Origin: a virus | Direction: 5' to 3' (one strand) | Virus record (IMG/VR): IMGVR_UViG_3300009372_000131 | Length of the DNA stretch: 37,103 bases | In this document: in pieces, positions 24,412-27,995 of the stretch | How the letters are laid out: each line of letters starts with the position of its first letter | How positions within the stretch are numbered: position 1 is the stretch's first letter | The notes under the pieces: model-generated | What the model was told of the DNA's origin: nothing | Seen by the model: only the letters and a program-made list of their open reading frames with translations | The model's database searches: none | Translations under genes and position numbers: made by a program

Positions 24412-26829
24412 CTAATGGAAAAAGTAGGGTGAGTCCTTAACGGACTCAACAGGGAAATCGCCTTGCGGCGGGGGAGGAGGACACTCGACACCAGCAGGTA
24501 GCATTGCATCTACCTCGGCTTTGAATGCCTCGAAGGGATTGCCTGAGAAGATCTCAGCCCAGGCAGAACGGAGTGCCTTATGCAGGCGGGGGATGTTGGC
24601 CGCGTGCACTCCGTACGAATCGTGGACGCATGACCAGGCAGTGATTGCATCATCACCCTTGCTGGCCTGGGCTACGGTGAGCTGACACGCAGCAGCATCG
24701 TAGGAATGGATGAGGTTAGCCGGCGTGGCTTGGCGCACTCGGCGTCCGTTGATCTCGTCTTGATCTACCCTATAGAGGTGCTTGCGGCATACCTCACCTA
24801 CTGAGCTCTTGATCCTCACCGTCTCCCACTTGCTGTAGCGCTGAACAACAGGGAATCCTACAACAGGGGTTGTCCAGCGCAGCGCAATCCCATGACTGGT
24901 GCATAGGTCTGCTACCCCGTGGAGCCAAGCCATAGCAACCTTTGCTGCGACCACTGTCTCGCCTATCGCGTCCCACATGATCTGCGCCAAGAATGTGCAA
25001 TGATCATAGGTGTCTAGCGTGAACGGTGTAGGTTGACCGCCTAAGCGCAGATCGTCATACCAGGCAGTGATTGAGCGCTGGCATGAATAGATCGTGCTTC
25101 CATAGCACAAGGTCATCGTGGGTTTTTTAGCGGCAGATCTTGGCATCTCACCATCAACAAACTGCAGCCAGCCCTTCGCATGCGGGTGGTCTGAAGCCTC
25201 GAGTTTTTGAGTCACAAGATCGGAGACCTCCTGATAAATATCCGCAGGTCTATCAGCTGGCGCAACACTCACAGATGCTGCTGTCTCTGCGTGTCTCATC
25301 GCAAGAGCGAAACACTGAAGACCATTGTTCACCCCATCCACATGCACAGGCAGATGACTCACGAACCCTAGCCCCTTGTCAAGGAATTCACCGTACTCCA
25401 AACACCATGCGAGGAATTCCCAAGCGCTCCCCTCTGCCTCTGTCCACCAGGTACATGAGATCGGGTCAGAATAGACCTCATAGATCGCTGACCTATTGTC
25501 ATGCACCCACTGAATTCGTTCAGCGAATGAGCACTTGTCAATGCCAAAGTGGTTGGCACCTGAGATGGCAAACGCATCAGCCTGCTCTTGATTTGTGATT
25601 GCCATCCCATCCCAGAATTCAAGCAGGGATCGCGCCTTCTCATCTCCCTGCGGCTGAAGGAAATAGGGAACAGGGTAGAGGCGTGATCGGAAGTCAGCGC
25701 TCATCGGGAAGTAGAAGGGAATGAACTCGAACTTCTCTGCCATGTATAACAAGCGTGCGATTTGTACACGCTTGCTCTTCAGCTTGAGATTGCGCTGGTG
25801 TACAGCTGCCGCGGTGCGCTTCCACTGCTTGAGGATGACCTTGTCTTCAGCCATTCCCGGCAGTGGGGGAGGGAGCTCAAGATCATTACGCGAGGGCAGG
25901 CCGGCGATCTCTGAGGACTCATCCCAGAAATGCTTGAGCACAGTCAGCACATTCTGATTGACCCTCCACTTAGTGCGCTGCAATGCGTTGACCGCATCGT
26001 AGAACAGCGGCATCTCGGTTGAGTCAAGGTCAGCCAGGTATGCGTTCCTCGTGGTCTTCACCAAGGGCTTGCGTAGGATCTCGTTTGTGTGATAGCCCCC
26101 GCCCCTCATTGCAAGGTGATCGAGAGGTATTGCAACAGTAGGCAGCCAGAACGGCATCAGCACCTCATGCTGTGCATGCGCCGAGTGCAGCCAGTCTTCT
26201 GTGGCTTTGGTTGCTGCTAGCATTGTCTGCTTGCGACCGCGGTGATTGGTTTGAGTGCAGACAGTGATCACTCCCTCTGCTGCACATGTCATGCCTATTG
26301 TTGCCTGCCGCATCAGCTCGATTGCAGCCAAGCCAACCTTGATGCGTTGCTTCTTAGGCATCGCTTCGACTTCAGTCTTGTGCCACACCGCACCTGAGTG
26401 CAGAGCCCTGCGTACAAAGTGCCTGCTGCTCAACTTGTGTCGGCGCAGGATGCGATTGAATTTGACAGGGTGCTCCTCTTTGAACCTGGAGAAATTGATC
26501 TCGTCCTCAATCGCTGCACCGATATGCTCTGCTGCGCTGATCATGCTGCGCCTCAGGCAGATGTCATCTAGCACTGCACGCGCAATGATGTGCGCGGCGA
26601 TGTTAGGATCCAGGCGCTTGAGAGTTTTGACCGCGGGCCTCGTATGAGCGTGAGGGTCTGATGTCCAGCGCTCGATAGCGTCAGCGAGAACTGCAACGCA
26701 TTCACGCAGCAGATGCTGACCTGGCGCAGTCACTGTCTCACGCCGGCCAGCGCGTGCTGAAGCTACCGTCTGCCTGTACCGAGTGATGCCTGCGTTCAGC
26801 ATCTCGATTTCTAGTTCAGCTTGACGCAT
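24412..26829 (-). CDS. Single-subunit DNA-directed RNA polymerase (T7 gp1-like)
   Basis: 805 aa. VHVDGVNNGLQ (motif A Asp), RSAAKKPTMTLCYGS (motif B region), CVHDSYG (motif C). The N-terminal ELEIEMLNAGITRYRQ resembles T7 RNAP. Confidence 0.95.
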   Translation of the reverse strand: MRQAELEIEMLNAGITRYRQTVASARAGRRETVTAPGQHLLRECVAVLADAIERWTSDPHAHTRPAVKTLKRLDPNIAAHIIARAVLDDICLRRSMISAAEHIGAAIEDEINFSRFKEEHPVKFNRILRRHKLSSRHFVRRALHSGAVWHKTEVEAMPKKQRIKVGLAAIELMRQATIGMTCAAEGVITVCTQTNHRGRKQTMLAATKATEDWLHSAHAQHEVLMPFWLPTVAIPLDHLAMRGGGYHTNEILRKPLVKTTRNAYLADLDSTEMPLFYDAVNALQRTKWRVNQNVLTVLKHFWDESSEIAGLPSRNDLELPPPLPGMAEDKVILKQWKRTAAAVHQRNLKLKSKRVQIARLLYMAEKFEFIPFYFPMSADFRSRLYPVPYFLQPQGDEKARSLLEFWDGMAITNQEQADAFAISGANHFGIDKCSFAERIQWVHDNRSAIYEVYSDPISCTWWTEAEGSAWEFLAWCLEYGEFLDKGLGFVSHLPVHVDGVNNGLQCFALAMRHAETAASVSVAPADRPADIYQEVSDLVTQKLEASDHPHAKGWLQFVDGEMPRSAAKKPTMTLCYGSTIYSCQRSITAWYDDLRLGGQPTPFTLDTYDHCTFLAQIMWDAIGETVVAAKVAMAWLHGVADLCTSHGIALRWTTPVVGFPVVQRYSKWETVRIKSSVGEVCRKHLYRVDQDEINGRRVRQATPANLIHSYDAAACQLTVAQASKGDDAITAWSCVHDSYGVHAANIPRLHKALRSAWAEIFSGNPFEAFKAEVDAMLPAGVECPPPPPQGDFPVESVKDSPYFFH

Positions 26830-27776
26830 TACCTGATCCTTGCCCAGAGATCTCTGAGTGCGAGGGCTGCTTGTTGGGGGACAACGGCATTGCCGAGGGC
26901 TCTAAGCTGATCCACCCGCACGGGAACCCCATCAACCACTCCACGAATAGAGGATTCAGTCGCAGGCCAGAGGTCCTCTGGGACATTTGACCAGTCTCCT
27001 TCGGGACCTGGTGGGAAGGTGGCGTCTGAAACCTCTGCTCTGCTGCCTCGTCTAGCTGCCCTTGGCGTTGGTCTAGTTGAAACGATCCCTTGTGGTCGTT
27101 TGCTCCTGGTGTCGGCCAAGCCTTTGCCTCCTTGTCCTGAGTTACACCCTTGTGGTCTCTCTCTGCGGGAGTGCGCCACTGCCTCATCGAGTCGGTCAAT
27201 GTTGTCCCTGGATGCATCACCCCCGTCTTGGTCGAGTGCCTGCCGCTCGAACGGGAATCCCCTGCCACAGCGGTAGGCCAAGACGAACACTCTGTTTCTG
27301 CGCTGAGTAGATCCGGCTTGGGCTGCGGAATAAACTCCCCACTCAGCATCGAACCCCAGTTCCATGAGATCTTCGAGGACTTGACGAAGTCCCTTGGAGA
27401 TATGTCCTTGGACATTTTCGAGAACAACGAGAGCTGGCCCACATTCTCTGATGATTCGCTTGACCTCAGGCCAGAGGTGTCGAGGGTCTTCAACTCCTTT
27501 GCGTGCTCCTGCACAGGAGAAGGGTTGGCATGGGTATCCCGCAGAGACAATATCCACGCATCCACTCCACGCTGCGCCATCGAAGGATCTAAGATCCGTC
27601 CACACAGGAGCGGGAGCCAGCCTCCCTTCCTCCATGCGCGATACCAGGACTTGGCAGCACGCGGCTTCCCTCTCCACGAAACAGACTGTTCGAGCGCCTG
27701 GAAACGCCAATTCGATTCCGAGATCGAGTCCTCCGATTCCTGAACAGAGGCTGAGTACCCTGGGACAACTATCCAC
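26829..27776 (-). CDS. DNA (cytosine-5)-methyltransferase, frame A. The catalytic motifs are intact, but the region between motifs VIII and X reads as low complexity.
   Basis: 315 codons, GTG start. Motif I LSLCSGIGGLDLG, IV PCQPFS, VI ENV, VIII QRRNRVFVL, X LGNAVVP. See the frame B segment and the findings. Confidence 0.8.
   Translation of the reverse strand: MDSCPRVLSLCSGIGGLDLGIELAFPGARTVCFVEREAACCQVLVSRMEEGRLAPAPVWTDLRSFDGAAWSGCVDIVSAGYPCQPFSCAGARKGVEDPRHLWPEVKRIIRECGPALVVLENVQGHISKGLRQVLEDLMELGFDAEWGVYSAAQAGSTQRRNRVFVLAYRCGRGFPFERQALDQDGGDASRDNIDRLDEAVAHSRRERPQGCNSGQGGKGLADTRSKRPQGIVSTRPTPRAARRGSRAEVSDATFPPGPEGDWSNVPEDLWPATESSIRGVVDGVPVRVDQLRALGNAVVPQQAALALRDLWARIR
26912..27280 (-). other. 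Alternate-frame (frame B) segment inside the methyltransferase gene, carrying target-recognition-domain-like motifs
   Basis: Part of track ORF 26816..27778. WPTAVAGDSR, WRTPAERDHKG, WPTPGANDHKGS and LNPLFVEWLMGFPCGW, offset by one nucleotide from frame A. Confidence 0.6.
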
Positions 27777-27779
27777 AAC

Positions 27780-27995
27780 TCAGCGCACCCCCAGATCTGT
27801 CAGCTTGAGTCTGCCTGATTGAGATGTACGCATCTTGTGGTGATGCAGCTGCAGACCATCAGCGGTCAAGACAATCACTCCATCGATTCCTTCCCCAGGC
27901 TTAGGCACCTGGTGTGTGCGGTAGGAACGACAGGCAAGCGTGAGCAGACTCAAGCTCAGGGCTGTGAGGATCACAACCTTGCACGGTAATTTCAT
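27780..27995 (-). CDS. Small secreted protein/lipoprotein candidate
   Basis: 71 aa. The signal-like MKLPCKVVILTALSLSLLTLAC has Cys after the hydrophobic core. ATGA overlap with the upstream mini-ORF. The stop lies 3 nt before the methyltransferase GTG. Confidence 0.5.
   Translation of the reverse strand: MKLPCKVVILTALSLSLLTLACRSYRTHQVPKPGEGIDGVIVLTADGLQLHHHKMRTSQSGRLKLTDLGVR

Follow-up and report, generated by a model that had tools for sequence, protein, structure and literature searches.

A phage C5 methyltransferase gene with its motifs divided between two co-extensive reading frames, probably encoding a two-chain enzyme

The closest described system to the gene considered here is M.EcoHK31I of Escherichia coli HK31, whose original description is reportedly the work of Lee, Kam and Shaw in 1995. 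In two papers that treat this enzyme, its alpha chain is described as holding motifs I-VIII together with X, and its beta chain as holding motif IX, the coding sequence of beta lying wholly within the alpha gene in another frame; the enzyme needs both chains, the two genes still work once they are separated, and beta can be started at several internal codons, its N-terminal residues being partly dispensable (PMC2836561; PMC3404938). M.AquI of Synechococcus sp. PCC 7002 is another natural two-chain C5 methyltransferase, split in the variable region, and M.AquI together with fragment complementation shows that the domains of C5 methyltransferases assemble in trans (PMC3404938). As for the opening of two frames, sites of the AUGUG or GUGUG type, in which two starts lie 2 nt apart, were shown in E. 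coli to open both frames from one ribosome binding site (PMC9841429). Here, we analyse a methyltransferase gene of about 950 nt found on the minus strand of a 37,103-nucleotide viral DNA (IMG/VR virus record IMGVR_UViG_3300009372_000131, hereafter the window). Its motifs are shared out between two frames that are both open from end to end, and the gene likely encodes a C5 methyltransferase made of two separately translated overlapping open reading frames (ORFs), alpha and beta, whose products assemble.

Both ORFs were found as described in an initial annotation made from the letters alone, with 315 and 320 codons in frames termed A and B. The two frames are stop-free and their overlap spans the whole gene: frame B starts 2 nt ahead of the alpha start and ends 13 nt past the alpha stop, thereby covering all of alpha. 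The canonical set of C5 methyltransferase motifs is split, as IX and X are not in the same polypeptide together with I-VIII (X is in frame A, IX in frame B). Recomputed motif positions agree with those first given except for the start of motif X, which lies at 26897-26877 and not at 26894-26877. The features of the locus are the following:

26829..27776, minus strand: frame A ORF (alpha), 315 codons (315 amino acids, aa), from a GTG start at 27776 to a TAA stop at 26831-26829
26816..27778, minus strand: frame B ORF (beta), +1 of frame A, TTG start at 27778, TGA stop at 26818-26816, 320 codons
27774..27778, minus strand: overlapping start codons TTGTG, made up of the frame B TTG (27778-27776) and the frame A GTG (27776-27774)
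27755-27717, minus strand: motif I LSLCSGIGGLDLG, frame A
27578..27580, minus strand: internal ATG of frame B (codon 67, start of MAQRGV), candidate alternative beta start
27533-27516, minus strand: motif IV PCQPFS (catalytic Cys, PCQ), frame A
27419-27411, minus strand: motif VI ENV, frame A
27305-27279, minus strand: motif VIII QRRNRVFVL, frame A
27089..27280, minus strand: recognition region with three W-x-T-P-type repeats, frame B, containing the conserved blocks WPTAVxGDSRSSGRHSTxTGVMHPGTTLTD and WPTPGANDHKG..GQLDEAAEQ
27280-27251, 27178-27149 and 27118-27089, minus strand: the repeats WPTAVAGDSR, WRTPAERDHK and WPTPGANDHK, respectively, frame B
26955..27017, minus strand: PPGP..WPA element FPPGPEGDWSNVPEDLWPATE, frame A, between two frame-B-selected segments
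26912..26959, minus strand: motif IX LNPLFVEWLMGFPCGW, frame B only
26832..26918, minus strand: motif X region RVDQLRALGNAVVPQQAALALRDLWARIR, frame A
26909..26918, minus strand: doubly coded junction, R-V-D in frame A (26918-26910) and G-W-I in frame B (26917-26909), family consensus GGGTGGAC
26897-26877, minus strand: motif X LGNAVVP, frame A

Frame A is readily recognized as a methyltransferase over its first half. The Pfam profile PF00145 covers residues 6-172 only (profile 2-165 of 324), PDB sequence matches (M.HaeIII, M.HhaI) end at about residue 170, and the P, C and S of motif IV are invariant in 75 homologues, with Q, P and F nearly so. In PHROGs, the full length of frame A is covered by a match to phrog_363 (E = 2e-63). 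The middle of frame A is of low complexity and poorly conserved, and the N-terminal half of frame B is an out-of-frame image of the catalytic domain. Searches of Pfam, NCBIfam and PDB sequences gave no match for frame B; PHROGs alone recognises it, through PHROG 1008 (phrog_1008, E = 1e-24). An AlphaFold2 (AF2) model of frame A, made with 75 homologues, has a predicted local distance difference test score (pLDDT) of at least 90 over residues 1-170 and of 84-98 over residues 291-315, falls below 50 over residues 185-241, and reaches 68-81 over residues 251-270, as it does for the PPGP..WPA element. Foldseek aligns this model with M.HhaI/M.HaeIII over about 170-175 columns, i.e., the large domain only. 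A hybrid translation passing from frame A to B and back to A widens the PF00145 alignment to profile 2-313 of 324; it was dropped as proof of a single chain, its score being barely higher (117.5 vs 116.6 bits).

The division between frames is not peculiar to the window. Hidden Markov models representing the N domain and motifs IX and X were run on the three forward frames of 183 loci, 103 of them viral or metagenomic and 80 from species-representative bacterial and archaeal genomes. In the comparison with related genomes, which the initial annotation had proposed, the same layout (I-VIII and X in one frame, the W-x-T-P region and IX in +1) recurs in 160 of the 183: 91 of the 103 viral or metagenomic loci, 80 of the 91 being retrieved by the motif IX pattern alone, and 69 of the 80 bacterial and archaeal ones, from many phyla. 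The overlap of the open frames has a median of 296 codons (range 216-479) among the 75 complete viral loci and of 319 codons (range 177-505) among the 69 bacterial and archaeal ones. Relatives are abundant, making up at least 452 of the first 600 motif-pattern matches in IMG/VR and at least 403 of 600 in species-representative genomes. The layout also spans subfamilies with different motif IV, and cultured examples include the Escherichia phages K1G, K1H and K1ind, the Synechococcus phage Yong-M2-251, and phages of Microcystis, Salmonella and Klebsiella.

Ten relatives, the close ones L001 and L002 and the IMG/VR loci L003-L010, have N-domain identities to the window from 74% down to 48% and all share this frame layout. 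Their frame 0 holds motifs I-VIII, a low-complexity middle and RVDxLRALGN[AS]V[VC]P; their frame +1 is open throughout and holds W-x-T-P repeats followed by LNPxFVE[WST]LMG[FL]PxGW. The middles vary in length and sequence, and a large insertion in L007 is sensible only in +1. When the frame B region was used as a query, 71 proteins were found, all devoid of Pfam domains; most are unnamed, and the named ones are called 'hypothetical protein' in all but one case. Strongly conserved blocks in these proteins are WPTAVxGDSRSSGRHSTTTGVMHPGTTLTDA, WPTPGANDHKGxxxxGQRRGQLDEAAEQ and RLNPxFVEWLMGFPxGWT. Three of their loci turned out to lie in +1 of frame-A-type methyltransferases that are complete and belong to other subfamilies; 'SSWKTSQ' is for instance the +1 image of the motif VI stretch 'VVVENVAAL'. 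The 'SWKTSQ..WPRSGMMRNG' N-termini of some hypothetical proteins were considered as an independent domain and rejected, as they are the +1 image of motifs VI-VIII.

Of note, in six frame-B-type proteins (P0163, P0164, P0168, P0176, P0181 and P0185) a Cys/His-rich insert, e.g., PCPCCENYWCLIHNAHAHECPCPP, lies between the GQLDEAAE block and motif IX; this insert resembles a zinc ribbon appended to the recognition region.

Which frame is under selection depends on the position along the gene. Family-wide variability was determined in 76 distinct gap-free loci anchored on motif IX. Across IX (0 to +68) it peaks at frame B third positions, with L, M and G invariant, and from the GN of motif X onward it peaks at frame A third positions. 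At the junction between them, GGGTGGAC, the share of a single base is 94, 100 and 89% at the frame A third positions and 94 and 100% at those of frame B; since both sets are nearly invariant, one stretch of nucleotides carries two conserved readings, R-V-D in A and G-W-T in B. At motif VIII, frame A selection continues to (I/V)(L/V)A, and the W-P-T of frame B starts in the same bases. The proposal that frame B is a genuine protein region from 27280 to 26912 is thus borne out, by its 71 homologues, by PHROG 1008 and by third-position variability.

The window's own clade was studied by comparing the window with L001, L002 and L003. Substitutions in the N domain fall mostly at frame A third positions against all three. 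In the first recognition block, the 7 substitutions relative to L001 give a synonymous/nonsynonymous count of 4/1 when read in frame B, against 2/5 when read in frame A. Over PPGPEGDWSNVPEDLWPA (27017-26955 region), frame A third positions account for 8 of 11, 8 of 12 and 9 of 15 substitutions relative to L001, L002 and L003, respectively, the synonymous/nonsynonymous counts being 7/4, 7/5 and 9/6 in frame A and 1/10, 3/9 and 2/13 in frame B. Substitutions in motif IX are mostly at frame B third positions, and 'WPATE' in A and the 'LRLN' of motif IX in B are the same bases. In motif X, 13 of 17 substitutions relative to L003 are at frame A third positions; L001 and L002 show four each, with no clear phase. 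In this clade, purifying selection alternates A, B, A, B, A along the gene.

The openness of the second frame was itself held improbable by the initial annotation, and this proved right. No +1 stop occurs in 316 codons of the methyltransferase (Poisson about 3e-7), whereas the other ORFs of at least 200 codons in the window have about 2-7 stops per 100 codons in +1 (most 4-5.7) and about 2.4-8.2 in +2. Under synonymous codon resampling with the window's own usage, the chance of obtaining an N-terminal half open in frame B is P = 0.0018, and that of a middle open in frame A is P = 0.0004. Synonymous shuffling within segments, done on the window alone, is only weakly significant for the N-terminal half (P = 0.09), so that the case draws its strength from the external codon-usage null and from the replication seen over many loci. 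The openness is beyond chance and is not an effect of composition. Moreover, in every complete viral locus (n = 75), frame B has already been open for 85 codons or more by the point where motif VIII ends.

The start region points in the same direction. In the window its letters are TTGTGGAT, with frame B opening at 27778 and frame A at 27776, and an upstream ORF of 71 aa ends in a TGA (27782-27780) immediately before the paired starts, an arrangement that suggests translational coupling. Paired starts 2-5 nt apart are present in 40 of the 75 complete loci, and the frame B ORF often opens right there, just after a stop codon. The types seen among these 75 loci are NTGTGG (14 loci), ATGAATG (20) and GTGACATGG (6). 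NTGTGG relatives show ATGTGG, GTGTGG or TTGTGG; in the ATGAATG type, the A start is followed by a +1 TGA and then by the B ATG, so that the B ORF opens exactly at that point. In about 20 of the 75, the opening of the B ORF lies 145-230 nt deeper in the gene, in many of them near an ATG made by the conserved FDG of frame A (GAT GGN), from which the internal ATG of the window at 27580 also arises. Automatic gene calls have taken both frames: the call of the Joint Genome Institute (JGI) on the 37,103-base contig (P0009) is frame A from Met48, and the gene call on an identical sequence from an independent Logan assembly (P0018) is frame B, beginning at the internal ATG.

Taken together, the two open frames, the alternating selection, the residues conserved on shared nucleotides, the conserved paired starts and the family-wide layout favour dual coding, which was one of several options raised initially and is the one that fits. 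Dual-frame coding at the IX/X junction is beyond a single ribosome pass. In the enzyme that we propose, frame A would give alpha, consisting of the large catalytic domain (I-VIII), a disordered linker, the PPGP..W..PA element and motif X; the linker would be a mere out-of-frame image of the recognition region. Frame B would give beta, in which a leader, probably dispensable and itself an out-of-frame image of the catalytic domain, precedes the W-x-T-P repeat target-recognition region and motif IX, these last two making up the small domain. The chains would come together without a covalent bond and make up an ordinary two-domain C5 methyltransferase, as in M.EcoHK31I. Initiation of beta probably takes place at the TTG overlapping the GTG (TTGTG, a putative single ribosome landing site), at the ATG at 27580, or at both. 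We infer from the sequence comparisons that both chains are made and assemble, how beta is likely to start, and that the product is active.

Several observations weigh against this two-chain scheme. Upstream of motif IX, the family-wide codon phase over 75 nt is nearly flat (0.30/0.31/0.39), and a PPGP motif in frame A is limited to 50 of 173 loci (against 1-4 for each of the remaining frames); the claim of frame A selection on the PPGP..WPA element is thus restricted to the window's clade, for which alone it is secure, and to these 50 motif-bearing loci. The N-terminal ~165 residues of frame B have no evident function, and its AF2 model has a mean pLDDT of 59.8, with an N-terminal half below 50 and the motif IX helix as the sole confident element. 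The TTG and GTG start codons of the window are both weak. As compared by description only, M.EcoHK31I has its predicted recognition domain in alpha, whereas here the recognition-type region lies in beta. Finally, some relatives link parts that are separate in the window. L013 and L015 have the N domain, the recognition region and IX in one frame, with X in the -1 frame, and in L014 a 22-nt insertion joins IX and X. In the Mycobacterium phage BabyBack, L061 and L071, alpha stops after motif VIII and a single ORF (gene 82 in BabyBack) holds the recognition region, IX and X. Overall, IX and X share a frame in five viral or metagenomic relatives, including the cultured phage BabyBack, and in three bacterial genome loci. 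Covalent linkage is thus optional and tolerated, and rare frameshift fusions may occur.

A few side observations concern these fused variants. In near-identical prophage copies (L013/P0076 and L015/P0105), indels shift about 100 codons of the recognition region between frames, and the -1 frame that carries motif X in L013 and L015 is open for about 290 codons. The indel differences of L013 and L015 could mean that one junction has naturally become hard-wired, that there is phase-like variation, or that the assemblies contain errors.

Among the alternatives to two separate chains only, a mixed mode survives best and has a small chance of being right. Separate alpha and beta would here be accompanied by some fused isoforms with regulatory or specificity roles, made for instance by slippage at the C5/G5 run at 27220-27224, a run that is present as first reported. 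Between close relatives, there are indeed indel differences by which the frames are joined at different places (P0066 vs P0076, P0061 vs P0105), and the frames are therefore interchangeable over short evolutionary times. However, no conserved slippery or homopolymer site is found at the junctions, and the fused variants come from metagenome assemblies, in which they may be natural mutants or errors.

Programmed frameshifting is improbable. It would yield a single chain by a +1 shift after VIII (near 27281-27290) and a -1 shift after GFPCGW (near 26912), and a number of features do agree with it: the order I-VIII / recognition region and IX / X is that of canonical single-chain enzymes, the A-B-A hybrid extends over most of PF00145 as reported above, relatives with one or the other junction in frame exist, and the frame under selection changes hands exactly at domain boundaries. 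Yet frameshifting needs neither an open B upstream of 27280 nor an open A from 27280 to 26912, and both are open in 160 loci; the zero frame is not closed after the shift site, A remaining open to motif X and B being open from the start of the gene, where it has its own start codon beside that of A. There is no stop or rare-codon +1 site at motif VIII, and a slippery X_XXY_YYZ heptamer lies between GW and GN in only 2 of the 76 loci. The conservation of RVD and GWT on the same nucleotides is at odds with a shift, and in the window's clade the frame-A-selected PPGP..WPA element between two B segments would call for four of them. In M.HhaI, 13 residues separate W from GN; this spacing is also 13 in P0083, and a single chain would reduce it to 6. 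A 2016 recoding review contains no DNA methyltransferase case. The +1/-1 recoding suggested at the outset is thus disfavoured.

Even less credible is that frame A alone is translated, frame B being the decaying relic of a compensating indel pair that left an enzyme with a rewritten, low-complexity middle. This was the first of the initial explanations, and it has some appeal in that frame A is a complete start-to-stop ORF, that databases mostly annotate frame-A-type proteins and that phrog_363 covers the whole of frame A. A chain made from frame A alone would however be devoid of motif IX and of a recognition domain, and its middle is not only poorly conserved but predicted to be disordered. 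In turn, frame B is under purifying selection at IX and in the recognition blocks over at least 76 diverged loci, is stop-free over a median of ~300 codons, and is the frame in which recognition modules and insertions are coherent, as seen with the L007 insertion and the zinc-ribbon-like inserts. The proposed compensated frameshift that rewrote the specificity domain is hence refuted, frame B being still selected and the layout family-wide.

Two indel errors in the contig, also among the initial explanations, can be set aside: PGAP does mark one E. coli prophage copy as pseudogene fragments, but the same frame structure is found in 160 of the 183 loci, independent and from various projects and technologies, finished genomes of cultured phages (K1G, Yong-M2-251) among them, and the second assembly of the window (P0018, Logan) is identical to the JGI contig.

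Regarding automatic annotation, PGAP records the prophage copy L183 (E. coli Ec1117, NZ_CP126602.1 2057858-2059027) as a DNA cytosine methyltransferase in two pieces, both pseudogene fragments labelled 'incomplete', and a neighbouring MT-A70 methyltransferase is flagged as frameshifted. Another side observation concerns the IX/X junction at the DNA level: a 77-nt segment (26868-26944) has ~81% DNA identity to the human-gut phage contigs MT838282.1 and MT838482.1, whose genomes are otherwise unrelated, a match that fits an extra constraint from two-frame coding. On the opposite strand (27150-27822, plus), unusually long open frames of 197 and 142 codons run across the gene; these are probably a by-product of stop avoidance in two sense frames.

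The surroundings of the gene are those of a T7-like phage, as deduced from the downstream neighbour, a single-subunit RNA polymerase of 805 aa (24412..26829), together with the gene content of relatives, which includes an integrase, DUF3310, RNA polymerase and SSB. The TAA of frame A (26831-26829) overlaps the ATG of the RNA polymerase (26829-26827) in a TAATG, and frame B extends 13 nt into the polymerase gene before its TGA (26818-26816). In L001 and L002, a DUF3310 gene, absent from the window, sits between the methyltransferase and the RNA polymerase. On the other side, the 71-aa ORF (27780-27995, minus strand; MKLPCKVVILTALSLSLLTLACRSY...) has a signal-peptide-like N-terminus with a lipobox-like LTLAC, and from these features may encode a small phage lipoprotein, e.g., for superinfection exclusion.

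Beyond the window, we lean towards the existence of a very large and ancient phage and prophage family of obligate alpha/beta C5 methyltransferases, with co-extensive same-strand ORFs (median overlap ~300 codons, up to ~500), paired starts (NUGUGG or AUGAAUG) and a recognition subunit hidden in +1. If true, few functional gene overlaps known in prokaryotic viruses would be longer or more widespread, and the shared nucleotides would compel the catalytic and the specificity subunit of this natural system to evolve together. In this widespread class of phage enzymes, the putative recognition subunit is invisible to Pfam and NCBIfam and is filed as hypothetical, ignored or flagged as a pseudogene, and predictions of methylation specificity and restriction evasion made from frame A only would miss the DNA-reading part. 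A same-strand overlap of ~950 nt, with alternating selection and doubly coded stretches, conserved across phyla, also constitutes a rare natural test bed, informative on how two proteins evolve on one sequence and for overlapping-gene detectors. Conservation of the NUGUGG and AUGAAUG paired starts suggests a clear functional pay-off of dual-frame initiation. Natural heterodimeric methyltransferases have served as starting material for targeted-methylation tools (PMC2836561), and the family offers many new alpha/beta pairs for engineering.

How does this locus relate to known systems? In described cases of frameshifted or overlapping C5 methyltransferases of phages, our searches returned only M.EcoHK31I and M.AquI, in a literature thinly covered for subscription journals, and no description of the layout as a family-wide feature of phage methyltransferases was found in the incomplete literature that can be searched. 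An annotated instance does exist in K1G (GU196277.1), of the same family and architecture, where ORF31/ORF30 are a 'putative C-specific methylase' and a nested 'putative Mte8-like protein'. The nested +1 ORF, of 230 aa, holds WPTPTANDFRG and motif IX (RLNPAHSRWLMGYPQEW) inside a methylase ORF of 274 aa, and differs from that of the window in that it opens 88 nt after the A start. The annotation of this pair dates from 2010 and draws no functional connection from one ORF to the other, and literature searches, including one for 'Mte8', found no paper discussing it.

With the canonical single-chain methyltransferases M.HhaI and M.HaeIII (PF00145), the window gene shares motifs I, IV, VI, VIII, IX and X, all present in canonical order along the DNA, and its frame A model superposes on their large domain; it differs from them in that the motifs are spread over two frames, with the full set in neither ORF. 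Like the AUGUG/GUGUG sites, TTGTG has two starts 2 nt apart in different frames. However, the E. coli cases concern short out-of-frame peptides or regulation, whereas the second frame of the window runs for ~320 codons and would encode a putative functional subunit, and UUG in first position is not among the motifs tested (PMC9841429). The M.AquI arrangement is found in relatives of the window, namely genes 83/82 of BabyBack, L061 and L071; in the window itself, the alpha frame contains X and the ORFs overlap completely, whereas the beta chain of M.AquI holds the distal variable region with both IX and X, and its ORFs overlap only partially.

It is M.EcoHK31I that comes closest, with an alpha chain holding I-VIII and X and a beta chain holding IX in another frame within the alpha gene, as in the window. 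The window beta differs in being co-extensive with alpha (320 vs 315 codons), with starts that overlap at TTGTG, and the window gene is an orphan phage gene beside an RNA polymerase, not part of a restriction-modification pair. Set beside M.EcoHK31I by description, the window gene would share its structural features except for the placement of the recognition domain, and the two-frame alpha/beta layout would, by this analogy, have in M.EcoHK31I its one experimental precedent.

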